From: Tubiluchus corallicola
Taxonomy: Eukaryota > Animalia > Priapulida
Length of the DNA: 13,231 nt
Direction: 5' to 3'
NCBI GenBank assembly: GCA_030141605.1
Contig: JAQGDQ010002517.1
Location: forward strand, 1 to 13,231
A program made the position numbers and the translations under genes. Under the pieces are notes generated by a model. The model did not search any database, was not told the DNA's origin, and worked only from the letters and a program-made list of their open reading frames with translations. This document shows, in pieces, positions 1 through 13,125 of this stretch (within the stretch, counting starts at the first letter, position 1; every line of letters begins with the position of its first letter).

Positions 1-597
1 AAAATTGATGATTTCTTAAAAAAGCATTTTTCATATTTTATTGAGGTTTATAATGACTTTCCTTACAATATACAGAGGTGGGATGCTATACGCTATCTTA
101 TTCTTTACCAGTATGGAGGTCTGTATGTAGATTTTGATTTTGAATGTTTAGAAAACTTAGAACCTTTGTTAGAAAACAAAGAGTGTTGTTTTGGTTACGA
201 GCCTGATGGACATAAATACTTGCCTCCCAAATATGATAAAATTGTAGGTAATGCCATAATGGCAACTGTTCCCAGACATCCATTTTATAAGCTTATTATT
301 GATAAGATGTATAAAGCCCACCCACACAGTAATATAAAAGAGAAGTTATATAGAAATAAAATTTTTATGGTTCTTTTTACTACGGGACCTGGATTAGTTA
401 CAGAGGTTTATGATGGTCACCAAAACAAAGAAGAAATTACAATTTTTGATTCAAAATACTTATATCCACTTACCAACACAGAAGTAAAAATTCTTGTTTT
501 AGACAAGGAAAATCCTGAGTTGTTAGATGAAAAACTAAGAGATGCCTATGCGGTTCATTACCTTTTTTCATTATGGATTCCCCAAGTAAATGAATAA
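1..597 (+). CDS. Glycosyltransferase, GT32/DXD sugar-binding (Och1/SUR1-like) family, copy 1, 5'-truncated by the window edge
   Basis: Frame is open from base 1 (KIDDFLKKHF...) to TAA at 595-597. Contains RWDAIRY..LY.YGGLYVDFD (DxD) and TTGPG. Collinear with copies 2-4. The listed start at 166 is internal. Confidence 0.9.
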   Translation, partial: KIDDFLKKHFSYFIEVYNDFPYNIQRWDAIRYLILYQYGGLYVDFDFECLENLEPLLENKECCFGYEPDGHKYLPPKYDKIVGNAIMATVPRHPFYKLIIDKMYKAHPHSNIKEKLYRNKIFMVLFTTGPGLVTEVYDGHQNKEEITIFDSKYLYPLTNTEVKILVLDKENPELLDEKLRDAYAVHYLFSLWIPQVNE

Positions 598-647
598 AAA
601 AATAGAAGTAATAAATTTTAAACTTTAATTTGAATTTTTATAAACCT

Positions 648-1376
648 ATGTCATTAAGAATACCGAGAATTATTCATCAAATATGGGAAGGCAAACCTCT
701 GCCTGAGTTTTATAAATTATTAGGAGAATCTTGGCAGAAAAAACATCCTGACTGGGAATATGTTTTTTGGGATGCAAAAAAAATTGATGATTTCTTAAAA
801 AAGCATTTTTCATATTTTATTGAGGTTTATAATGACTTTCCTTACAATATACAGAGGTGGGATGCTATACGCTATCTTATTCTTTACCAGTATGGAGGTC
901 TGTATGTAGATTTTGATTTTGAGTGTTTAGAAAATTTAGAACCTTTGTTAGAAAACAAAGAGTGTTGTTTTGGTTACGAGCCTGATGGGCATAAATCGTT
1001 AGCTCCCAAATATCATAAGATTGTATGCAATGCCATAATGGCAACTGTTCCAGAGCATTCATTTTATAAGCTTATTATTGATAAGATGTATAAAGCCCAC
1101 CCACACAGTAATATAAAAGAGAAGCTATATGGAGATAAAGCTTCTATGGTTCTTTTTACTACGGGACCTGGATTAGTTACAGAGGTTTATGATGGTCACC
1201 AAAACAAAGAAGAAATTACAATTTTTGATTCAAAATATTTATATCCACTCACTCACGAAGAGATACAAACCCTTGTTTTAGATAAGAAAGATCCTGAATT
1301 ATTAGACAAAAAGTTAAAAGATGCCTATGCGGTTCATTACTTTTTTTCATTATGGATTCCCCAAGTAAATGAATAA
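648..1376 (+). CDS. Glycosyltransferase, GT32/DXD family, copy 2
   Basis: IPRIIHQIW N-terminal motif, YGGLYVDFD and TTGPG. ATG at 648 (MSLRIP) is preferred over the in-frame TTG at 630. Confidence 0.92.
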   Translation: MSLRIPRIIHQIWEGKPLPEFYKLLGESWQKKHPDWEYVFWDAKKIDDFLKKHFSYFIEVYNDFPYNIQRWDAIRYLILYQYGGLYVDFDFECLENLEPLLENKECCFGYEPDGHKSLAPKYHKIVCNAIMATVPEHSFYKLIIDKMYKAHPHSNIKEKLYGDKASMVLFTTGPGLVTEVYDGHQNKEEITIFDSKYLYPLTHEEIQTLVLDKKDPELLDKKLKDAYAVHYFFSLWIPQVNE

Positions 1377-1426
1377 AAAAATGGAAATAATAAATTTTAA
1401 ACTTTAACTTGAATTTTTATAAACCT

Positions 1427-2161
1427 ATGTCATTAAAAATACCTAGAATTATTCATCAAGTATGGGAAGGCAAGGAAGAACCTCTGCCTGAGTTTTATAA
1501 ATTATTAGGAGAATCTTGGCAGAAAAAACATCCTGACTGGGAATATGTTTTTTGGGATGCAAAAAAAATTGATGATTTCTTAAAAAAGCATTTTTCATAT
1601 TTTATTGAGGTTTATAATGACTTTCCTTACAATATACAGAGGTGGGATGCTATACGCTATCTTATTCTTTACCAGTATGGAGGTCTGTATGTAGATTTTG
1701 ATTTTGAGTGTTTAGAAAATTTAGAACCTTTGTTAGAAAACAAAGAGTGTTGTTTTGGTTACGAGCCTGATGGGCATAAATCGTTAGCTCCCAAATATCA
1801 TAAGATTGTATGCAATGCCATAATGGCAACTGTTCCAGAGCATTCATTTTATAAGCTTATTATTGATAAGATGTATAAAGCCCACCCACACAGTAATATA
1901 AAAGAGAAGCTATATGGAGATAAAGCTTCTATGGTTCTTTTTACTACGGGACCTGGATTAGTTACAGAGGTTTATGATGGTCACCAAAACAAAGAAGAAA
2001 TTACAATTTTTGATTCAAAATATTTATATCCACTCACTCACGAAGAGATACAAACCCTTGTTTTAGATAAGAAAGATCCTGAATTATTAGACAAAAAGTT
2101 AAAAGATGCCTATGCGGTTCATTACTTTTTTTCATTATGGATTCCCCAAGTAAATGAATAA
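1427..2161 (+). CDS. Glycosyltransferase, GT32/DXD family, copy 3
   Basis: Same motifs as copy 2; ATG at 1427. The N-terminus matches copy 4 and the remainder matches copy 2. Confidence 0.92.
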   Translation: MSLKIPRIIHQVWEGKEEPLPEFYKLLGESWQKKHPDWEYVFWDAKKIDDFLKKHFSYFIEVYNDFPYNIQRWDAIRYLILYQYGGLYVDFDFECLENLEPLLENKECCFGYEPDGHKSLAPKYHKIVCNAIMATVPEHSFYKLIIDKMYKAHPHSNIKEKLYGDKASMVLFTTGPGLVTEVYDGHQNKEEITIFDSKYLYPLTHEEIQTLVLDKKDPELLDKKLKDAYAVHYFFSLWIPQVNE

Positions 2162-2211
2162 AAAAATGGAAATAATAAATTTTAAACTTTAACTTGAATT
2201 TTTATAAACCT

Positions 2212-2952
2212 ATGTCATTAAAAATACCTAGAATTATTCATCAAGTATGGGAAGGCAAGGAAGAACCTCTGCCTGAGTTTTATAAATTATTAGGAGAATC
2301 TTGGCAGAAAAAACATCCTGACTGGGAATATGTTCTCTGGGATGCCAAAAAAATTGATGATTTCTTAAAAAAGCATTTTTCATATTTTATTGAAGTTTAT
2401 GATGACTTTCCTTACAATATACAGAGGTGGGATGCTATACGCTATCTTATTCTTTACCAGTATGGAGGTCTGTATGTAGATTTTGATTTTGAGTGTTTAG
2501 AAAACTTAGAGCCTTTGTTAGAAGATAAAGAATGTTGTTTTGGCTATGAACCTGATGAGCACAAATATTTAACTCCTAGATATAATAAAATTGTAGGTAA
2601 TGCCATAATGGCAACTGTCCCAGAGCATCCGTTTTACAAACTTATCATTGATAGAATATATAAAACACATCCACACAGTACAAAAAAGGAACAATATGGT
2701 AAAAAAGATTTTATGGTTCTTTTCACTACAGGACCTGGACTGGTCACAGAAATTTATGATACTTGCCAAAATAAAGAAGAAATCACTGTTTTTGATTCAA
2801 AATACTTATACCCTCTTACTAACGAAGAAATAAGAACTCTTGTCTTGGATAAGGAAAATCCTGAGTTGTTAGATGAGAAATTAAAAAACGCTTATGCACT
2901 TCACTATATGTTTTCATTATGGTCTAAACAACTAAATGAACAAAAATTATGA
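2212..2952 (+). CDS. Glycosyltransferase, GT32/DXD family, copy 4
   Basis: Same motifs; ATG at 2212. The C-terminal half is the most divergent of the four. The stop codon overlaps the next start (ATGA, 2949-2952). Confidence 0.92.
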   Translation: MSLKIPRIIHQVWEGKEEPLPEFYKLLGESWQKKHPDWEYVLWDAKKIDDFLKKHFSYFIEVYDDFPYNIQRWDAIRYLILYQYGGLYVDFDFECLENLEPLLEDKECCFGYEPDEHKYLTPRYNKIVGNAIMATVPEHPFYKLIIDRIYKTHPHSTKKEQYGKKDFMVLFTTGPGLVTEIYDTCQNKEEITVFDSKYLYPLTNEEIRTLVLDKENPELLDEKLKNAYALHYMFSLWSKQLNEQKL

Positions 2953-5345
2953 GATGTTATCAATTATTTATTATTTTTATTTTAGTTGTAGAGACCGTTC
3001 AATCCCAAAACTTTAAGGTAGAAGGCACAATATTAGATGGTAATAGCAATGTTTTGCCCTATGCCAATCTGCAAATACTAACCCTTGATAGTGTTTTTTT
3101 CAAAGGAGGGATTTCGGGGGACAACGGAGAGTTCCTTTTTGAGGATATTCCAGCAGGTGAGTATTTGTTTTATGCCTATTATTTGGGGTATGAACAATAT
3201 GTAAGTAATATTACTATAAAATCAGATGCCCAGTTAGATAATATTAGGTTACAACAACAATCTACAGCCATAGAAGAAGTAGTAGTAAAGGCATTAAAAC
3301 CTACAGTAGAGCGTAAGATAGATAGATATGTAGTTTCTTTAAGTGGTACTTATGTAGGTGGTAGGACGACTTTAGATTTACTGAAATTTGCACCTGGCGT
3401 AACAGTAGATTTAGATGGTAACATATTACTCAACAGACAGGATGTTACAGTATTTGTGAATGATAGGCAACTGCGATTGAGTGGTAAACAATTACAAAGT
3501 TACTTGCTAAGTCTCAATAGTGAAGATATAGAAAGCATAGAGGTACTACCTAGCCCCAAGGCAGATATGGATGCAGAAGGCTCAGGAGGTATTATAGTAA
3601 TCAACTTAAAGAAAGGAGCTAAAAGAGGCACTAATGGTTATGTGAATGCAGGATACAGCAAGGGTATAGCTCCTGCTGCTGATGGTAATATAGGCTTGAA
3701 CTACAACAAGAACAATCTCACCCTATATGCAAATTATGCTTATCATTACACTGAGCCTTATGAATACTATGAGATGCTCTATACACAGGAAAATAGTGAA
3801 ACTACTTTTTTTGATTATGTCAAAAACTATCTTTATAATAATTCTCATACTGTAAGAGGCGGTTTGGATTATATTATTGGGAATAGACACAACATAGGGT
3901 TAGAAGTAGATGGCAATACCTCAAGGAGTGATGCCAAAAAGGCTTATACCAACACAGAAATTTATACGGGTGAGGTTTTAGATACCCTTATTCTAGGAGA
4001 TTTCCCCAAAGTAAACGCTTCAAACAATTTAGGGGTTAATTTCAATTACATATGGGATATAGATGACAAGGGTAGGAAGTTTAAATTGATTACAGATTAT
4101 TATACCTACTCTCAAGAAGTAGAAGATGACTACAATAGTGACTATTACAGTGGTGACAATCTATATGATATAGTGTATTCTATTAATAGGCAAAGTACTA
4201 ATAGTAATGAATTAGATATTTATACAGTTCGTGTAGACTACATTCATCCCTTCAACAATAACACAAAATTGGAAACAGGTTTGAAGTTTAGCGATGTAGT
4301 CTCTATTACAAACAATAGGTTCTTTTTCTTGGAGGGCGATGAGTGGGTAGTTGATACTGGAAGAACAGATAAGTTTAGCTATACTGAAAATATTTATGCA
4401 GGCTATGCAACTTTCGAGTCTAAATGGAAGAAGTTGGAGTATTCATTTGGGCTTCGTGCAGAGCATACCCAGTTTGACACCTATTCTCATACCTTAGATT
4501 CTACTACCAGTAATACCTACACAGAGTTATTTCCTACGGTATTTTTCTCACATCCCATTTTTGAAGAAGACAAGATTATCATTAACTACAACAGAAGAAT
4601 ACGGAGACCATCTTACGAGTGGATGAATCCCTTTGAATATTTTTATGGTGAATACACTATAGGAAAGGGGAATCCTAATATTATTCCCTCTTATTCTCAA
4701 AATATAGAACTAAACTATGCACTCAAAGGCAAACATTATTTTACCTTCAAATATACACATAGAGATGATATAATAGGAGAATTTTACTATAGAGACCCTG
4801 AAACAGATATTGCTACAAGGACTTTTAACAATTTAGCCAAATCACAATTTTTAACTTTCGATATTTTTACTCCCTTTAAAATTTATAAATGGTGGACGAC
4901 AGACAATTATGTGTCGTTTAGTTACAATCTTTTTGAAGAAGAAAAAATAGATTATGCAGTCCAATTCCCCGTTGTCTTTATTTCTTCCAATCATTATTTT
5001 CTCTTACCCAAAGATTTTAGATTTGAAATGAATATAGCTTTTAGGTCAAAAGATGTAACATATACATATACGACTATGGAGACTTCTATGTTTTTTTTAA
5101 ACCTCTCTATTCAAAAGAGCTTTTGGAAGAACAAAGCCAATCTAAGAATATTTGCAAATGACATTTTATACAGAGGTGGTAGATGGGAAGCTTCTGAAGA
5201 TTATCTGGGACAGTATAATTATATTTATGCTGAAGGAGACACCCGTAGGGTAGGTATATCATTTAAGTACAATTTTGATTGGGGAAAAAGTTTTTCAGTA
5301 AAAGGCAATGAGAAAAGTAATAGAGACGAATTGCAAAGAAAGTAA
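2949..5345 (+). CDS. Outer-membrane beta-barrel / TonB-dependent receptor-like protein with N-terminal carboxypeptidase-regulatory-like domain, copy 1
   Basis: 798 aa. Has a 19-aa signal peptide followed by Gln, a VEGTILD..LPYAN..G..DNGEF domain, a plug-like segment (IESIEV..SP.A..DAEGSGGII.I.LKK) and aromatic alternating beta-strands ending VGISFKYNF. Confidence 0.88.
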   Translation: MRCYQLFIIFILVVETVQSQNFKVEGTILDGNSNVLPYANLQILTLDSVFFKGGISGDNGEFLFEDIPAGEYLFYAYYLGYEQYVSNITIKSDAQLDNIRLQQQSTAIEEVVVKALKPTVERKIDRYVVSLSGTYVGGRTTLDLLKFAPGVTVDLDGNILLNRQDVTVFVNDRQLRLSGKQLQSYLLSLNSEDIESIEVLPSPKADMDAEGSGGIIVINLKKGAKRGTNGYVNAGYSKGIAPAADGNIGLNYNKNNLTLYANYAYHYTEPYEYYEMLYTQENSETTFFDYVKNYLYNNSHTVRGGLDYIIGNRHNIGLEVDGNTSRSDAKKAYTNTEIYTGEVLDTLILGDFPKVNASNNLGVNFNYIWDIDDKGRKFKLITDYYTYSQEVEDDYNSDYYSGDNLYDIVYSINRQSTNSNELDIYTVRVDYIHPFNNNTKLETGLKFSDVVSITNNRFFFLEGDEWVVDTGRTDKFSYTENIYAGYATFESKWKKLEYSFGLRAEHTQFDTYSHTLDSTTSNTYTELFPTVFFSHPIFEEDKIIINYNRRIRRPSYEWMNPFEYFYGEYTIGKGNPNIIPSYSQNIELNYALKGKHYFTFKYTHRDDIIGEFYYRDPETDIATRTFNNLAKSQFLTFDIFTPFKIYKWWTTDNYVSFSYNLFEEEKIDYAVQFPVVFISSNHYFLLPKDFRFEMNIAFRSKDVTYTYTTMETSMFFLNLSIQKSFWKNKANLRIFANDILYRGGRWEASEDYLGQYNYIYAEGDTRRVGISFKYNFDWGKSFSVKGNEKSNRDELQRK

Positions 5346-5354
5346 TGACATACT

Positions 5355-5583
5355 TATATGTACAATGAGCGGAAGCCAAAAAGCTAAGAAAATAGAGTAG
5401 GCATAACCTTTAAAACGTCATTCTTTGAACATTACAAATTTGTATATATACAATTAGTGGAAGCCGAAAAACTAATAAAAGAGTAGGCATAACCTTTAAA
5501 ACGTTATTCTTTGAATATTACAAATTTGTATATATACAATTAGTGGAAGCCGAAAAACTAATAAAACTAATAAAAGAGTAGGC
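5355..5583 (+). repeat. About 2.6 copies of an 86-88 bp direct repeat containing GGAAGCCRAAAA..AGAGTAGGC
   Basis: GGAAGCC occurs at 5371, 5459 and 5545. AGAGTAGGC ends at 5402, 5488 and 5583. The intervening sequences are near-identical. The third copy has an internal 9-bp duplication (ACTAATAAA, 5557-5574). Confidence 0.95.
5459..5488 (+). ncRNA. Candidate structured RNA element (GCC-GAA...AGUA-GGC hairpin, resembling the Flavo-1-type Bacteroidota motif); also at 5371-5402 and 5545-5583
   Basis: GCC/GGC pairing flanks GAA and AGUA, the loop-E/sarcin-ricin arrangement. The family assignment is from recall and has not been verified. Confidence 0.45.
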
Positions 5584-5606
5584 AAAATTTTAAGTTTATT
5601 TAAATT

Positions 5607-5777
5607 ATGGAAAATAAAAAGCAAAATGAAAAGCAAGAAGCTAAAAAAGTTCTTTTAGCTCAGGAAGCTGAGAATCTTCTAAGTGCTGAGATGTTAAAAT
5701 TTAAGGGAGGAGGTGCTTCGACCAGATGGTGTATCTCTAGACAATGTAATACTTATGCATGTTACACTAAATCTTAG
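5607..5777 (+). CDS. RiPP precursor peptide with double-glycine leader, 56 aa: MENKKQNEKQEAKKVLLAQEAENLLSAEMLKFKGG-GASTRWCISRQCNTYACYTKS
   Basis: Translated by hand from ATG 5607 to TAG 5775-5777. The LSAEMLKFKGG leader end fits the GG-motif pattern. The core carries C-x4-C-x4-C. It lies directly upstream of the rSAM/SPASM and C39 ABC transporter genes and is below the ORF-track size cutoff. Confidence 0.9.
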   Translation: MENKKQNEKQEAKKVLLAQEAENLLSAEMLKFKGGGASTRWCISRQCNTYACYTKS

Positions 5778-5864
5778 AAATTTAACAGATATTCTGTACC
5801 AATTTTAGCAAACGATATATCAGAAGAATCTAATATATTAATATTTTAAGGTACTAAGCTATCT

Positions 5865-5896
5865 AAATTTCCTGCCAAAAACTGGCAGGAAATTTT
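5865..5896 (+). terminator. Stem-loop between precursor and maturase genes (terminator/attenuator or mRNA stabiliser)
   Basis: Perfect 13-bp inverted repeat AAATTTCCTGCCA (5865-5877) / TGGCAGGAAATTT (5883-5895) with a 5-nt loop. The T-tail is short. Confidence 0.7.
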
Positions 5897-5930
5897 ATCT
5901 AATTTATTTAAATTTAATATCTTAATAACT

Positions 5931-7409
5931 ATGAATATAACATTTAATCCTGATTATATAATTAGACCAGATAAAGGAAAAGCATTGTTATTGTCAAAAG
6001 ACGTTATGAGGTTTAATCAAGAAACCAGAGAAGGTCGTTTTATGTCAAATATACATCCCATTCACGCAATGGTACTATCATTTATGAATGGGGAAGAAAA
6101 AGGGAAATCTATTGACAAGGCTGCAAAATATTTGAATATCTCGTCTGCAAAAGTGAAGGATTTTGTAAACTCTTTAATAGAAAACAAAGAAAGAAAAACG
6201 ATTCAAATAGGAGCTCACTCAACTTCTACTTTTCCTATACATACACTCATTCAATCAGATAAAAAAAATACCAGAGTATATAACCCCGACGATTTTTTGT
6301 ATGACAAACTAGACTTAACAAACAATAGAAATTCTACTCCATCGGATGTAACTTTGATGGTAACAACTCAGTGTGCTACCAATTGTATTTATTGCTATGC
6401 TGACAGAAAAAAAGTATCCACTAAAATTCCTCTTGATAGAGTCAAAGAATTGATACAAGAAGCAGTTCAATTTAAAGCAAGAAGTTTTGGTGTAGTAGGA
6501 GGAGACTTTTTTGCATACAAGCACTGGAGAGAAGTCTTAAAAGAACTATACAAATATAGTTTTCATCCATATCTATCAACAAAAGTTCCCCTTCAAGAAA
6601 AAGATATTGCTTTTTTAGCAGATATTGGTATTGTAGACATACAAATTTCATTAGATACTTTGGTAGAAGACAATCTTATTGCACTGTTACAGGCAAATTC
6701 TCATTATCCTAATAGAATACAAGAGACTTTAAGATTGCTTGACAAATACAATATAAATACAATTATACATACCATTGTTTCAGATATTAATGGTCATATA
6801 GAAGATATCAAAAGTGTTTATGATTTTATAAAGAAATTGACAAATATCTCACAATGGATAATAGAACCTGCAATAAATTCATCTTATACCCAACAAGAAT
6901 TTTCTGAAATAAAAGTAAAACGAGATAATTTAAAAAAACTCACTAATTATACCAGTGAATTAAAAGAAAAGAATAACAAATTTGAAATATACCCTCCCAA
7001 TTTAGCAGAAACACCTAAGGAACTATCTATAAAAGGGGGGAAAGATAATTTTTCTAATATGTCAATCTGTTCTGGTAATCTTTCCCAATTGTTTATTTTA
7101 CCTGATGGGCAGGTAACAATATGTGACCAAATGTATTGGAGACCTCGATTTATTCTGGGTAATATATTGGAGCAGAGCTTAGAAGAAGTTTGGAACTCGG
7201 AAAAAGCTCGTAGTCTCTACTATATAAAAAAAGAAGCCATTCAAGACAAAAGCGTTTGTAAATCGTGTTCTAACTTTGAAAAATGCAGATACCAAAATGG
7301 AAGCGCCTGTTGGAAAGATGTTATTCAAGCTTACGGAGAAGAAAATTGGGACTATCCAGATCCAAAATGCCCTAAAGCTCCTAAAGTAACGAAAGATATT
7401 TATGTTTAG
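5931..7409 (+). CDS. Radical SAM/SPASM-domain peptide maturase
   Basis: 492 aa. CATNCIYC fits CxxxCxxC; GGD replaces the usual GGE. SPASM-type cysteines: CSGN...ILPDGQVTIC...LGNI...CKSC.....C.......C...CP. Confidence 0.93.
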   Translation: MNITFNPDYIIRPDKGKALLLSKDVMRFNQETREGRFMSNIHPIHAMVLSFMNGEEKGKSIDKAAKYLNISSAKVKDFVNSLIENKERKTIQIGAHSTSTFPIHTLIQSDKKNTRVYNPDDFLYDKLDLTNNRNSTPSDVTLMVTTQCATNCIYCYADRKKVSTKIPLDRVKELIQEAVQFKARSFGVVGGDFFAYKHWREVLKELYKYSFHPYLSTKVPLQEKDIAFLADIGIVDIQISLDTLVEDNLIALLQANSHYPNRIQETLRLLDKYNINTIIHTIVSDINGHIEDIKSVYDFIKKLTNISQWIIEPAINSSYTQQEFSEIKVKRDNLKKLTNYTSELKEKNNKFEIYPPNLAETPKELSIKGGKDNFSNMSICSGNLSQLFILPDGQVTICDQMYWRPRFILGNILEQSLEEVWNSEKARSLYYIKKEAIQDKSVCKSCSNFEKCRYQNGSACWKDVIQAYGEENWDYPDPKCPKAPKVTKDIYV

Positions 7410-9615
7410 AAAGCAGTTCCCCTCTTGCTATCAACGCGATGCTATGGACTGTGGTGCTGCTTGTTTAAAGTCTATAACACGGTATTATGGCAAAAACTTC
7501 GATTTAGAAGAAATAAGGGAGAAATGCTACATTACAAACGAGGGTGTTTCGTTGATGGGAATAGCAGAGGCTGCCAAACATTATGGATTATCTACAAAGG
7601 GTTATAAACTAACTATCAAAGCCTTAAAAGAAAGATTCCAAAAACCATGTATTCTGCATTGGAATCAAAATCATTTTGTAGTTCTTTACAAAATAACTAA
7701 GAAAAAAAAAACTACAAAATTCCATATTGCAGACCCTGGGACAGGCAAAATAGTCTTAAACGAGAAAATCTTTAAGAAAGCTTGGCTTGGAGCTAAGAAC
7801 TACAATGAGAAAGAAAAAAAAATGGGGGCTACATTGTTCTTAGAGCCTACAAAATTATTCTACCAACAAAAAAGCCAAAAACCTAAACTACACTTTAACT
7901 TCCATAAAATATGGGCATACACTAAGCCCTATAAAAAAGCATTAAGGCAACTTTTATACTGTGTACTGTTTGTCAATCTTATTCAGTTTGCCTTTCCCTT
8001 TCTTACACAAATCATTGTTGATATTGGCATCAACCAGCAAAGTGTCAATATCATACTAATGATACTAATAGCCCAAGTGGTATTGTATATAAGTACCAAT
8101 CTTTCTGATTTTGTAAGAAGATGGTTGCTACTACAAGTCAACAGTAGGATAAATATATTCATGATTTCAGATTTTTTACTTAAGCTTACCCAACTGCCTA
8201 TACGTTTTTTTGATAATAAACTATTAGGGGATATCCTGCAAAGAATAAATGACCATTCTAAGATAGAACACTTCTTAACCTCTACTGTAACCAATATTTT
8301 CTTTTCATTTACTACCTTGATTATATTTGGTATAGTTCTCTCTATTTATAGTTTTCAACTCTTTTTATTGTTTTTAGCAGGTAGTGTGCTTTACATATTT
8401 TGGATTTATATATTCTTAGAAAAGCGCAAAGAAATTGATTATGCCCGTTTCATTCAGCAGTCAGCAAATAGTAGTAATTTGGTAGAGTTCATCAGGGGGA
8501 TGAAGGATGTGAAGCTCTACAACTGCCATAATGAAAAACGCTGGGAGTGGGAAAAAATACAAGTAAAGCTTTTCAAACTTAACTTAAGTAGTCTATCTAT
8601 TGAGCAATATCAAAGCATAGGTAGTCTGCTTATCAATCAAATAAAAAATGTACTGATTACTTTCCTAAGTGCTAAAATGGTCATAGAAGGTGAGTTATCC
8701 TTGGGAATGATGCTATCCGTTCAGTTTATTGTAGGGCAACTAGAAGGGCCTATTAATCAAACCATCGAATTTATGCACTCTTGGCAAGATGCTAAAATTT
8801 CATTCGAAAGGCTGGGCGAAGTGCATAAAAAAGAAAACGAAGAAAAAGGAACGGAAATAGCCATCTCTAACACTACACAATACAGTATTGCTCTAAAAAA
8901 TGTCTCTTTCCAATATGATGGGCCCTATTCCCCTAAGGTATTACAGAACATAAACTTGGAAATCCCTTTTGGCAAGACGACTGCCATTGTTGGTACCAGT
9001 GGAAGTGGTAAAACTACATTGATAAAAATGCTTTTGGGCTTTTACGAGCCTATTGAGGGTGAAATAACGATAGGTAATAATCTGTTGAAAAAGATTAATC
9101 TAACTACGTGGAGAAATCGCTGTGGGGTAATTCTGCAAGATAGTTTTATCTTCTCAGATACCATAGCTAACAACATAACCCTATCGGAAGAGAATATTGA
9201 CTATAAGAAGCTGGAATATGCTACCCAAATGGCAAACATACTTGACTTAGTGGAATCTCTACCTTTAAGATTTAATACTAAAATAGGGGCAGACGGACAT
9301 GGCCTAAGCCAAGGACAGCAACAAAGGCTTTTGATAGCAAGGGCTATTTACAAAGATCCTGACTACATATTCTTTGACGAAGCTACCAATTCATTGGATG
9401 CAAGCAATGAAAACGAAATAATGGACAATATAGAGGTTTTCAGTAAGGATAAAACAGCTATTATTATTGCTCATAGGTTTAGCACTATAAAAAATGCAGA
9501 CCAAATTATAGTATTGCAAGAAGGAAAAATCCTTGAAAAAGGAAAACATAAGGAACTGATGAAGGATGGCAAAGTATACTACAACTTAATGAAAAACCAA
9601 TTGAACTTAAATTAA
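7402..9615 (+). CDS. Peptidase C39-containing ABC transporter (PCAT, SunT/LagD-like)
   Basis: QRDAMDCGAACL (catalytic Cys), HWNQNHFVV, ADP, a transmembrane domain, Walker A GTSGSGKTT, signature LSQGQQQR, Walker B IFFDEAT and AHR. Confidence 0.96.
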   Translation: MFRKQFPSCYQRDAMDCGAACLKSITRYYGKNFDLEEIREKCYITNEGVSLMGIAEAAKHYGLSTKGYKLTIKALKERFQKPCILHWNQNHFVVLYKITKKKKTTKFHIADPGTGKIVLNEKIFKKAWLGAKNYNEKEKKMGATLFLEPTKLFYQQKSQKPKLHFNFHKIWAYTKPYKKALRQLLYCVLFVNLIQFAFPFLTQIIVDIGINQQSVNIILMILIAQVVLYISTNLSDFVRRWLLLQVNSRINIFMISDFLLKLTQLPIRFFDNKLLGDILQRINDHSKIEHFLTSTVTNIFFSFTTLIIFGIVLSIYSFQLFLLFLAGSVLYIFWIYIFLEKRKEIDYARFIQQSANSSNLVEFIRGMKDVKLYNCHNEKRWEWEKIQVKLFKLNLSSLSIEQYQSIGSLLINQIKNVLITFLSAKMVIEGELSLGMMLSVQFIVGQLEGPINQTIEFMHSWQDAKISFERLGEVHKKENEEKGTEIAISNTTQYSIALKNVSFQYDGPYSPKVLQNINLEIPFGKTTAIVGTSGSGKTTLIKMLLGFYEPIEGEITIGNNLLKKINLTTWRNRCGVILQDSFIFSDTIANNITLSEENIDYKKLEYATQMANILDLVESLPLRFNTKIGADGHGLSQGQQQRLLIARAIYKDPDYIFFDEATNSLDASNENEIMDNIEVFSKDKTAIIIAHRFSTIKNADQIIVLQEGKILEKGKHKELMKDGKVYYNLMKNQLNLN

Positions 9616-9623
9616 TACTTCTG

Positions 9624-10097
9624 ATGAACACTCCTCATATAAATAGCAAAGAATTTACAGATATAATGAAGTTTCAACCCAGTAACTTATCAAAAATAGT
9701 AGTTGGTGGTTCACTTTTCATTATTGTGTTGCTTGTTATTTTTGCTTTGTTTATTGAAGTACCAGAGGAAAAGCTTAATTTTCAGGTAAAAGCAAATGAA
9801 ATTTCTTTGTTGACAGAAGATACTGCTTCCCTGTTAGCTGAAGAGAGTTATCAAAAGATATTAACGACAGAGCAAAAAATCTCTATTCTTTCCCTTAATC
9901 AACACATAAAAGGAGTAATTTATAGGGTAGTGAAAAAACCTACTAATCCTCGCGGTAAAATATCAGTCATAATGACAATAGAGAAAAATACTCTTGACCT
10001 AAAAGAACTCACACCACAAGACACCCTAAAAGTAGAGATAGTAGTAAAGAAAATTCCAGTCTTAGAAAAACTTATTCCTTTTATTAAGAGAAAATAG
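9624..10097 (+). CDS. Short HlyD/membrane-fusion-like accessory protein with a single N-terminal TM helix
   Basis: 157 aa with one hydrophobic segment (IVVGGSLFIIVLLVIFALFI). Starts 8 nt after the PCAT stop. The C-terminus VEIVVKKIPVLEKLI resembles HlyD-family ends. The product call rests on context. Confidence 0.55.
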   Translation: MNTPHINSKEFTDIMKFQPSNLSKIVVGGSLFIIVLLVIFALFIEVPEEKLNFQVKANEISLLTEDTASLLAEESYQKILTTEQKISILSLNQHIKGVIYRVVKKPTNPRGKISVIMTIEKNTLDLKELTPQDTLKVEIVVKKIPVLEKLIPFIKRK

Positions 10098-10126: not shown

Positions 10127-10351
10127 TGACCTCCTCCCAAAAAACTGGACAGATATAAATCAGAGATAGTCGGTAAATAGTTTTAAGTTTAAAATAATAC
10201 GTTATTTACAATGAAAAAATCAAAACTTGCAGAATCACAAGTTGTATTTGCATTAAGACAAGCAGAGACTGGCACACAAGTTTCAGAAGTATATCGAAAA
10301 CTAGGCATAAGTGAAGCTACTTTTTACACAAGGAGAGGGGATCAGAGGTCA
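10127..10351 (+). mobile_element. IS3-family remnant (left end plus truncated orfA)
   Basis: TGACCTCCTCCCAAAAAACTGGACAG at 10127 resembles an IS3 left inverted repeat. A possible partial right end (GGAGAGGGGATCA / GAGGTCA) lies at 10332-10351. No orfB/DDE domain is present. Confidence 0.7.
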
Positions 10352-10447
10352 AATCTTACTCTGCCTCACAACATCACTAAGCGTTCCCGTAATAACTTCA
10401 AGAAAGCTATCAATTCGGAGGAAAATATCTTAACAAAAATCAATTAA
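10211..10447 (+). pseudogene. Truncated IS3-family transposase OrfA (HTH) running into unrelated sequence
   Basis: MKKSKLAESQVVFALRQAETGTQVSEVYRKLGISEATFY is a typical OrfA N-terminus. Similarity stops at about 10327, where NWKKKY-like sequence would be expected. Confidence 0.85.
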
Positions 10448-10729: not shown

Positions 10730-13125
10730 ATGAATTATTTTTAGTATGCTTGCTACTCTTTCTACATATAGTAACTCTTCAAGGACAAAACTTTAAGGTA
10801 GAAGGCACAATATTAGATAATGAGAGCAATGTTTTGCCCTATGCCAATCTGCAAATACTAACCCTTGATAGTGTTTTTTTCAAAGGAGGGATTTCGGGGG
10901 ACAACGGAGAGTTTATTTTTGAGGATATTCCAGCAGGTGAGTATTTGTTTTATGCCTATTATTTGGGGTATGAACAATATGTAAGTAATATTACTATAAA
11001 ATCAGATGCCCAGTTAGATAATATTAGGTTACAACAACAATCTACAGCCATAGAAGAGATAGTAGTAAAGGCATTAAGACCTACAGTAAAGCGTGAGATA
11101 GATAGGTATGTAGTTTCTTTAAGTGGTACTTATGTAGGTGGTAGGACGACTTTAGATTTACTGCAATTTGCACCTGGCGTAACAGTAGATTTAGATGGTA
11201 ACATATTACTCAACAGACAGGATGTTACAGTATTTGTGAATGATAGGCAACTGCGATTGAGTGGTAAACAATTACAAAGTTACTTGCTAAGTCTCAATAG
11301 TGAAGATATAGAAAGCATAGAGGTACTACCTAGCCCCAAGGCAGATATGGATGCAGAAGGCTCAGGAGGTATTATAGTAATCAACTTAAAGAAAGGAGCT
11401 AAAAGAGGCACTAATGGTTATGTGAATGCAGGATACAGCAAGGGTATAGCTCCTGCTGCTGATGGTAATATGGGCTTGAACTACAACAAGAACAATCTCA
11501 CCCTATATGCAAATTATGCTTATCATTACACTGAGCCTTATGAATACTATGAGATGCTCTATACACAGGAAAATAGTGAAACTACTTTTTTTGATTATAT
11601 CAAAAACTATCTTTATAATAATTCTCATACTGTAAGAGGCGGTTTGGATTATATTATTGGGAATAGACACAACATAGGGTTAGAAGTAGATGGCAATACC
11701 TCAAGGAGTGATGCCAAAAAGGCTTATACCAACACAGAAATTTATACGGGTGAGGTTTTAGATACCCTTATTCTAGGAGATTTCCCCAAAGTAAACGCTT
11801 CAAACAATTTAGGGGTTAATTTCAATTACATATGGGATATAGATGACAAGGGTAGGAAGTTTAAATTGATTACAGATTATTATACCTACTCTCAAGAAAT
11901 AGAAGATGACTACAATAGTGACTATTACAGTGGTGACAATCTATATGATATAGTGTATTCTATTAATAGGCAAAGTACTAATAGTAATGAATTAGATATT
12001 TATACAGTTCGTGTAGACTACATTCATCCCTTCAACAATAACACAAAATTGGAAACAGGTTTGAAGTTTAGCGATGTAGTCTCTATTACAAACAATAGGT
12101 TCTTTTTCTTGGAGGGCGATGAGTGGGTAGTTGATACTGGAAGAACAGATAAGTTTAGCTATACTGAAAATATTTATGCAGGCTATGCAACTTTCGAGTC
12201 TAAATGGAAGAAGTTGGAGTATTCATTTGGGCTTCGTGTAGAGCATACCCAGTTTGACACCTATTCTCATACCTTAGATTCTACTACCAGTAATACCTAC
12301 ACAGAGTTATTTCCTACGGTATTTTTCTCACATCCCATTTTTGAAGAAGACAAGATTATCATTAACTACAACAGAAGAATACGGAGACCATCTTACGAGT
12401 GGATGAATCCCTTTGAATATTTTTATGGTGAATACACTATAGGAAAGGGGAATCCTAATATTATTCCCTCTTATTCTCAAAATATAGAACTAAACTATGC
12501 ACTCAAAGGCAAACATTATTTTACCTTCAAATATACACATAGAGATGATATAATAGGAGAATTTTACTATAGAGACCCTGAAACAGATATTGCTACAAGG
12601 ACTTTTAACAATTTAGCCAAATCACAATTTTTAACTTTCGATATTTTTACTCCCTTTAAAATTTATAAATGGTGGACGACAGACAATTATGTGGCGTTTA
12701 GTTACAATCTTTTTGAAGAAGAAAAAATAGATTATGCAGTCCAATTCCCCGTTGTCTTTATTTCTTCCAATCATTATTTTCTCTTACCCAAAGATTTTAG
12801 ATTTGAAATGAATATAGCTTTTAGGTCAAAAGATGTAACATATATATATACGACTATGGAGACTTCTATGTTTTTTTTAAACCTCTCTATTCAAAAGAGC
12901 TTTTGGAAGAACAAAGCCAATCTAAGAATATTTGCAAATGACATTTTATACAGAGGTGGTAGATGGGAACATTCTGAAGATTATCTGGGACAGTATAATT
13001 ATATTTATGCTGAAAGAGACACCCGTAGGGTAGGTATATCATTTAAGTACAATTTTGATTGGGGAAAAAGTTTTTCTGTGAAAGATAATGAAAAAAGCAA
13101 TCAGGATGAGTTGCAAAGACAATAG
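10730..13125 (+). CDS. Outer-membrane beta-barrel / TonB-dependent receptor-like protein, copy 2; probable true ATG at 10730 is out of frame by one base (ORF open 10750-13125)
   Basis: The mature region differs from copy 1 at about 19 of 779 residues (counted by eye). One extra T in the run at 10738-10742 would give MNYFLVCLLLFLHIVTLQG-Q and a 798-aa product, the same length as copy 1. Confidence 0.85.

Follow-up and report, generated by a model that had tools for sequence, protein, structure and literature searches.

The whole stretch of DNA analysed here (hereafter the window), contig JAQGDQ010002517.1 of the Tubiluchus corallicola assembly GCA_030141605.1 with its 13,231 nucleotides, holds a Bacteroidota gene cluster for a peptide that is synthesized by the ribosome and post-translationally modified (a RiPP), in which a radical S-adenosylmethionine (rSAM) maturase and a peptidase-containing ABC transporter (PCAT) stand together with glycosyltransferase (GT) genes of family GT32. 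Two things are new here: the GT32 genes belong to a clade that, on strong comparative evidence from sequence, appears to go with RiPP loci of Bacteroidota, across several classes, and not with polysaccharide loci, and the maturase belongs to an rSAM family that is widespread in Bacteroidota, unnamed, not modelled in NCBIfam and apparently uncharacterised. An earlier, sequence-only reading of this DNA had proposed a RiPP-type cluster, and its parts were indeed identified: a precursor peptide whose leader is of the double-glycine (GG) type, an rSAM/SPASM enzyme with a fused RiPP recognition element (RRE), a C39 PCAT and an outer-membrane barrel. We consider it highly probable that the cluster makes a cross-linked, exported peptide; that this peptide is also tailored by the GT32 enzymes is the reading we prefer, and hold tentatively.

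In the preferred reading, the RRE-fused rSAM/SPASM enzyme likely cross-links the three-Cys core of the GG-leader precursor, the C39 transporter is predicted from established PCAT biology to cleave off the leader and carry out the export, the barrel would act as a receptor or in export, and the amplified GT32 is likely an optional tailoring enzyme, adding a sugar to the peptide or extending one on it. The weakest step is the peptide as glycosyltransferase acceptor. This reading is supported because the GT32 clade is tied to RiPP loci and its pairing with the rSAM recurs in three further loci (L043, L194 and L196), because the fourth GT32 copy overlaps the start of the barrel gene and the GT32 paralogues are under purifying selection, and because protein-directed transferases stand beside Och1 among the closest solved folds.

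The GT32 clade in RiPP loci

The commonest partner of the GT32 clade is the GG-Bacteroidales system, which NCBIfam models as a Bacteroidales system of rSAM, GG peptide and glycosyltransferase (TIGR04148 rSAM, TIGR04149 precursor, TIGR04150 pseudo-rSAM and TIGR04157 glycosyltransferase); class I lanthipeptide clusters also carry the clade. In metagenomes, the best 80 of at least 568 relatives of the window's GT32 proteins fall in 79 loci, or 54 clusters at 80% identity. A core RiPP marker is present in 19 of the 22 clusters of at least 10 kb (TIGR04148/50-like in 10, TIGR04149-like in 12, TIGR04157-like in 9 and C39 in 6) and in 44 of the 79 loci when the short ones are included. For the markers we used profiles of our own, made for the most part from neighbours above NCBIfam cut-offs, with five precursors of the TIGR04149-like set not scanned; since some of the profile members came from these same metagenome loci, genome samples provide the independent test.

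Among 301 genomes of one order, 30 GT32 matches were found and read as 29 regions. The three close GT32s (>300 bits) are all found within RiPP clusters, including one of the class I lanthipeptide type, whereas no RiPP marker was found in the 26 regions around distant GT32s, and polysaccharide-cluster genes stand in four of the five such control regions examined. Across 401 phylum-wide genomes there were two matches, one of 219 bits adjoining a PCAT and one of 142 bits without a PCAT. A sample of one family had the clade in 21 of 183 genomes, at 39 places, with a core marker in 16 of 17 GT32-centred stretches, for which longer contigs were chosen. Over all genome samples RiPP-marked clade loci number 20 of 21, and a TIGR04149 match occurs in 17 of the 21 genomes with the clade against 46 of the 162 without it (p 5e-6, with no correction for kinship). 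These counts, set against the unmarked distant regions, make unlikely the possibility, named in the sequence-only reading as one that could undo it, that the GT32 genes come from an upstream polysaccharide cluster.

It is accordingly very improbable that the window's GT32 genes are part of an ordinary locus for capsular polysaccharide or exopolysaccharide and stand where they do by chance. Most sampled Bacteroidales PF04488 genes are distant GT32s of the 26 regions without a RiPP marker, and several of these do lie in polysaccharide loci, but the window copies fall inside the RiPP-associated clade (46 rows, Shimodaira-Hasegawa-like approximate likelihood ratio test (SH-aLRT) support 91), in which, by a broader marker set, RiPP markers accompany 38 of the 42 other rows, against none of the 26 outside. 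The tree is a quick one of 72 rows with SH-aLRT support only, leaving out domains <170 aa, exact duplicates and loci <8 kb. On the clade profile, which has two window copies among its 50 rows, the window's GT32s score 240-331 bits.

Three class I lanthipeptide clusters with the clade have a split LanB (L105:3304-9763, L130:4066-11665 and L164:8666-18484; loci are given by our own labels) and also carry GT7-like, GT47 or GT2 genes. Many clade members are fusions of 510-560 aa whose N-terminal domain of ~300 aa has no Pfam match (as at L088:9059-10690, L043:15042-16577 and L110:7006-8619), and still others have a GT4 or GT2 domain as fusion partner.

The rSAM family, its precursors and export genes

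Relatives of the window's rSAM found by genome scan are from Bacteroidota, and the window itself has a GC content of ~0.3. Members turned up in 11 of a sample of 301 genomes from the order to which G002 belongs (source of L003, labelled Prevotella) and, in the taxonomic family of G001 (source of L001, labelled Tannerellaceae), in 11 of 183 genomes. The loci considered below are the best 80 of 395 relatives from one genome scan; many of their contigs are short, and 38 of the 80 reach 4.5 kb upstream and 5 kb downstream. Within them a C39 transporter occurs in 53 and a PF14905 barrel in 56-57, short GG-leader ORFs (open reading frames) lie directly upstream of the rSAM, and the order barrel, precursor, rSAM, PCAT is repeated in L005, L027 and L031.

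Following its double glycine, the window's precursor has the predicted core GASTRWCISRQCNTYACYTKS, whose three Cys stand in a Cx4Cx4C pattern. Leader positions L24, L25 and G35 are conserved in at least 90% of 24 aligned precursors. Against the NCBIfam precursor models the window's precursor had no match, including TIGR04149 (cut-off 25 bits) at E 0.1. The 51 candidate precursors (50 from the rSAM loci plus that of the window), which were selected for at least one Cys, have 2-10 Cys each; CxxxC is the commonest spacing (54 of 186 gaps), and in 14 the Cys region is devoid of aromatic residues.

In the maturase, the CxxxCxxC motif and seven SPASM Cys are invariant in 58 of 58 sequences. Its predicted structure (predicted local distance difference test, pLDDT, 91.2) begins with three strands followed by three helices at residues 2-82, which is RRE-like, and its best structural matches are SuiB, SkfB and CteB at 13-16% identity, with SuiB matched over the full length (template modelling score, TM, 0.63). 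By sequence the best solved relative is SkfB (E 2e-16), and the nearest database relatives are at most 48% identical. No NCBIfam model reaches its cut-off on this protein (best 48.7 bits), and TIGR04148, with a cut-off of 300 bits, is not among the 25 NCBIfam matches listed for it. Placed by motif landmarks, the catalytic-site residues are Tyr156, Val/Ile189, 215 or 216 (ambiguous), Ser240, Asp/Glu399 and Gln/Glu400; Lys218 is invariant in the family, and a Glu follows the auxiliary-cluster Cys in 57 of 58 sequences, the window's enzyme having Asp there. The corresponding profiles given in the consulted part of PMC10288494 are F-F-T-S-H-Q for CteB and Y-T-I-S-K-L for StsB. Seven SPASM Cys is the count for the thioether formers CteB, QhpD and Tte1186, according to passages of PMC10352776. 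Because there is Cys in every family core together with a seven-Cys SPASM domain, Cys thioethers would be the likeliest chemistry of the enzyme, a view we favour somewhat; other chemistry is possible.

The PCAT is 63.7% identical to that of L001. The 157-aa ORF downstream of it has no Pfam match, and its Atlas feature scores are 0.96 for an LcnD-like cluster and 0.94 for HlyD-family clusters.

A domain of another kind, DUF6734 (PF20508), is found in 5 of the 80 rSAM loci, among them L001, the closest, where the precursor has both DUF6734 and a LanC-like gene upstream of it. It has a DxD-like motif (L001:7278-8195, L018:1779-2666, L028:8365-9219 and L108:3471-4988). As a relative of GT32 it was rejected (hhalign probability 1.6%, no solved relative); Atlas gives a lead to GT8-like clusters at 0.90-0.91, and DUF6734 may be another unrecognised glycosyltransferase of RiPP clusters. 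GT2-LanC-like fusions lie downstream of the window-type rSAM at L056:4211-6268 and L061:10881-12560.

Loci that join the rSAM family to the GT32 clade

The window-type rSAM, the GT32 clade and a PCAT occur together in three other, unrelated loci as well, L043, L194 and L196, giving four such loci with the window. Relative to the window, identities in the other three are 31-36% for the rSAM and 35-41% for the GT, which points to recruitment on more than one occasion. The genes of L194 run GT1, GT32, PCAT, HlyD, GT2, two precursor-rSAM pairs and barrel, with no TIGR04148-type system over 34 kb; its precursors, at 8511-8666 and 10279-10443 (minus strand), are acidic, have two Cys in the core along with Tyr and His, and lie each beside its own rSAM. 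In L196 the order is GT32, TIGR04157-like fusion, precursor, rSAM, six-bladed propeller, split GT32 and PCAT, and the stretch read has no TIGR04148 gene. The L196 precursor reaches the TIGR04149 cut-off with 25.3 bits, so the leader classes overlap.

These loci bear on a rather improbable alternative, namely that the GT32 array of the window forms the 3' end of another RiPP cluster lying upstream, either of the GG-Bacteroidales TIGR04148 type or a lanthipeptide cluster, and tailors the precursor of that cluster, not the one described here. Among the 22 long metagenome loci, TIGR04148/04150 accompanies the clade in 10, as its commonest partner, and the window-type rSAM in none (best 80 of at least 568 relatives); a composite of this sort can be seen in L061, with the order TIGR04148, TIGR04150, GT10, GT2, barrel, precursor, window-type rSAM and PCAT; and the second barrel copy of the window has its own 5' end, with no GT upstream. 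The pairing of clade and window-type rSAM in L194 and L196, where the stretches read have no TIGR04148 gene, argues the other way, as do the overlap of leader classes in the L196 precursor and, in the window itself, the overlap of GT32 copy 4 with the barrel start codon.

Fold and acceptor of the GT32 enzymes

The predicted structure of GT32 copy 4 has a GT-A fold (pLDDT 89.8) and no obvious signal peptide or membrane segment, so the enzymes would share a compartment with the precursor. Its top Foldseek match is Och1 (E 2e-10), and structural comparison gives YGT (Z 19.3), Och1 (18.6), YeGT (18.2) and SetA (17.9), with root mean square deviations of 3.0-3.2 over 191-205 residues and 17-22% identity. 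The closest solved folds are those of the protein-directed YGT, YeGT, SetA and PaToxG, and also of Och1; we take this fold group to be retaining, with alpha linkages. The likeness of the model to Och1 and SetA does not fix the acceptor.

Several results weigh against the peptide as the acceptor, or against the GT32 genes as a defining part of the cluster. The sequence-only reading had proposed a check of rSAM neighbourhoods, which bore out the GG-peptides beside the rSAMs but found a clade GT32 in one (L043) of the 80 closest rSAM loci; since it is missing from the other 79, GT32 is optional for the rSAM family and does not define the class. A Pfam-named GT of any kind stands in the co-oriented run of 7 of the 80 (L028, L043, L054, L056, L061, L071 and L080), in a scan of 126 + 62 neighbours that took at most two per sequence cluster, mostly <700 aa, and left out five near-duplicates of L065; the GTs of L071 resemble a sugar-nucleotide cluster. 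At the level of genomes, the rSAM family and the GT32 clade do not co-occur significantly (3/11 against 18/172, p 0.12). By sequence the sole solved relative of the GT32 proteins is Och1, which is a glycan extender. An enrichment of Ser/Thr in the cores near GT32 in a first set (11 against 36 cores, p 2e-4), one among several residue classes examined, was not replicated in 22 independent cores (0.19 against 0.17, p 0.30; p 0.58 in the window-type family), and both cores of L194 have neither Ser nor Thr. Tyr, a post hoc idea, is no commoner near GT32 (11 of 11 cores) than elsewhere (33 of 36). Finally, a further precursor may lie 5' of position 1.

As an alternative that we regard as unlikely but serious, the peptide would be cross-linked and exported unglycosylated, and the GT32 genes would accompany RiPP clusters because their enzymes modify another target, such as a surface glycan, a lipoprotein or an outer-membrane receptor, for self-protection or display. 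It is helped by the optional GT32 (1/80), by the absence of a signal in core composition and by the kinship with Och1. The clade's neighbours, moreover, include glycan-building families (GT2, GT4, GT7, GT10, GT14, GT47, a sulfotransferase and UDP-galactopyranose mutase), which exceed the obvious needs of a peptide of 20-40 aa, although they would fit decoration with several sugars as well as a non-peptide target. On the other side, a Pfam scan of the whole window, which begins inside GT32 copy 1, found neither a flippase nor a polymerase, and no priming transferase or sugar-nucleotide genes; in many independent loci the GT genes lie intermingled with those for precursor, maturase and PCAT; and the GT model, with its want of an obvious signal peptide or membrane segment, places the enzyme with the precursor.

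The preferred reading, a cross-linked and exported peptide tailored by a GT32 of the RiPP clade, has a bolder form, which we think somewhat unlikely: a dedicated GT32 clade, serving Bacteroidota RiPP clusters as a mobile module for peptide glycosylation, would here alpha-glycosylate a peptide cross-linked by an uncharacterised rSAM family with its own active-site signature, making the GT32 a retaining, Och1/SetA-like peptide transferase and the product a new glycopeptide class, with the diverged copies adding sugars at different sites or extending a chain.

One GT32 gene, locally amplified

The sequence-only reading spoke of an array of GT32 enzymes, and four PF04488 ORFs are present, but all four stem from local amplification of one gene and represent three sequence types. 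The four proteins are 84-99% identical and form a single clade in the quick tree (SH-aLRT 100). Their PF04488 scores are 53-74 bits against a gathering cut-off of 23, D96 and D98 of the DxD motif are invariant in the family, and in Pfam and NCBIfam there was no match to PF00535 or to any NCBIfam model. Copy 3 joins the 5' end of copy 4 to the body of copy 2, a chimera that, like the 856-bp repeat (Table 1), is as unequal crossing-over would yield; the region is prone to duplication, since the barrel gene is also duplicated, past an IS3 remnant.

Purifying selection acts across the three types (ratio of nonsynonymous to synonymous divergence, dN/dS, 0.13-0.23), and positive selection among the paralogues was not seen, the ratio by region being 0.05-0.33. 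Most of the differences between the types fall after the DxD motif, where the positions concerned vary within the family (mean conservation 0.34 against 0.60); such positions may include the acceptor site.

That one member of the pair of copies 2 and 3 is an expansion of the repeat in assembly and not a real gene would affect copy number alone, and is quite improbable. The exactness of the 856-bp repeat speaks for it, as does the possible sequencing error at the out-of-frame ATG of the second barrel copy, but many synonymous differences separate copies 1, 2/3 and 4 (dS 0.2-0.7), which means no fewer than three genuine copies; the chimeric copy 3 fits unequal crossing-over, and tandem pairs of clade GT32 genes are also found in 11 of the 79 related metagenome loci (best of at least 568 relatives).

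Layout of the window

The features of the window are collected in Table 1. As the sequence-only reading had noted, all genes of the cluster are co-oriented, every one listed by the ORF and Pfam scan being on the + strand, and both overlaps it gave are in the sequence: the stop of GT32 copy 4 overlaps the barrel start in ATGA at 2949-2952, and the rSAM and PCAT genes overlap by 8 bp at 7402-7409.

Table 1. Coordinates of the features found in the window
Feature	Position	Strand	Evidence and remarks
GT32 copy 1	1-597, 5' end cut by window start	+	PF04488 E 4e-14; aa identity 90% to copies 2/3, 84% to copy 4
GT32 copy 2	630-1376, probable start ATG 648	+	PF04488 E 3e-20; DFD motif at invariant DxD of family
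Exact direct repeat, 856 bp	694-2334 (694-1549 = 1479-2334)	+	
GT32 copy 3	1409-2161, probable start ATG 1427	+	PF04488; 99.6% nucleotide identity to copy 2
GT32 copy 4	2194-2952, probable start ATG 2212	+	PF04488; model pLDDT 89.8
Outer-membrane beta-barrel	2949-5345	+	PF14905; N-terminal CarboxypepD_reg, weak plug match
Imperfect tandem repeat, 86-bp unit, 5' of precursor	5355-5587	+	
Precursor peptide, 56 aa	5607-5777	+	Double-glycine leader; 20-21-aa core, three Cys, Cx4Cx4C
Perfect 13-bp hairpin between precursor and rSAM	5865-5895	+	
Radical SAM/SPASM maturase, N-terminal RRE-like domain	5931-7409	+	PF04055 + PF13186
Peptidase-containing ABC transporter (C39 + ABC membrane + ATPase)	7402-9615	+	Pfam
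Short LcnD/HlyD-like secretion accessory protein, 157 aa	9624-10097	+	Atlas feature scores
IS3-family transposase remnant	10211-10447	+	PF01527 E 5e-6; beyond cluster, before second barrel copy
Second barrel gene copy	10750-13125	+	98.6% nucleotide identity over 2335 bp; 5' end differs; beyond cluster

The 86-bp unit upstream of the precursor is present in ~2.5 tandem copies, is AT-rich and has short internal palindromes; it is possibly a duplicated promoter or operator. The hairpin downstream of the precursor would be a terminator or a processing stem. A promoter scan gave matches at the level of chance (68 against 62), and the intergenic regions of the window have no canonical Bacteroidetes -7 motif. 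The second barrel copy also has an ATG at 10730, which sits at five consecutive T and does not share the reading frame of the ORF; this may reflect a frameshift in the signal peptide or an error in the sequence.

Relation to known systems

The sequence-only reading did not recognise the cluster as a characterised class, and no characterised match was found in the literature searched, which lay mostly outside subscription journals; the architecture, by contrast, is already present in NCBIfam models and in PMC10352776. Its closest counterpart is the GG-Bacteroidales system, mentioned in passages of PMC4573289. The two have in common their occurrence in Bacteroidota, a Cys-rich precursor with a GG leader, an rSAM/SPASM enzyme, a PCAT and accessory glycosyltransferases; they differ in that the window's rSAM is of another family, its precursor has no TIGR04149 match, and no pseudo-rSAM (TIGR04150), LanC-like or TIGR04157 gene is found in the window, which begins inside GT32 copy 1. 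By the models the window cluster would lie outside the GG-Bacteroidales family, yet it appears to work alike and to share the accessory GT32 clade. No characterised product of that system, which is a bioinformatic model, was found in the literature searched.

Fernandez-Cantos et al. (2023) described in silico, in the part of PMC10352776 consulted, Bacteroidales clusters of rSAM, PCAT, outer-membrane protein and GG precursor, all four of which the window shares, with glycosyltransferases as accessory enzymes in the clusters BGC3 and BGC9. GT32 or PF04488 does not occur in those of its supplements that were searched, and its BGC1 or BGC2 may have the rSAM family of the window. Ranthipeptide and sactipeptide systems (CteB-thermocellin, SkfB, StsB) resemble the window in the combination of RRE, rSAM and seven-Cys SPASM domain and in cores with Cys repeats, but the enzymes are only 13-16% identical, and the acidic residue after the auxiliary Cys and Lys218 differ from CteB and StsB as given in PMC10288494, one supplement file of which, when searched, had no Bacteroidota names. 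Large rSAM-RiPP atlases may include the window's rSAM family; no characterised member of it was found in the literature searched.

Glycocins rely on disulfides and are not known to use a radical SAM enzyme. What the SunS-type glycocins share with the window is a GG leader, export by a PCAT, a core with Cys and a glycosyltransferase encoded alongside. Glycosylated RiPPs are rare, being limited in the account of PMC11912497, as far as its consulted part goes, to glycocins, some thiopeptides, two lanthipeptides and lasso peptides, and most characterised RiPP glycosyltransferases, those of glycocins included, are predicted there to be GT2, unlike the window's GT32-type enzymes with their Och1/SetA-like fold. 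With the GT32/GT44/GT88-like retaining transferases (Och1; SetA, PaToxG and YGT) the window's enzymes share a GT-A fold with DxD, but Och1 extends N-glycans and SetA, PaToxG and YGT are secreted and modify proteins, whereas the enzymes in question are stand-alone domains of 250 aa in a peptide cluster. A GT32 transferase acting on a RiPP peptide was not found in the literature searched.

Significance

The general architecture has already been catalogued in silico and the GT is optional, which limits the significance of the window as a system. It is, all the same, a minimal test case, with one precursor of 56 aa, one maturase and one GT family, and L194 makes a good test of the acceptor residue, because its cores are without Ser and Thr and its cluster has GT1, GT2 and GT32 together. 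If the GT32 clade does act across the RiPP classes of Bacteroidota, it would amount to a novel type of peptide transferase, one that is easily tested.

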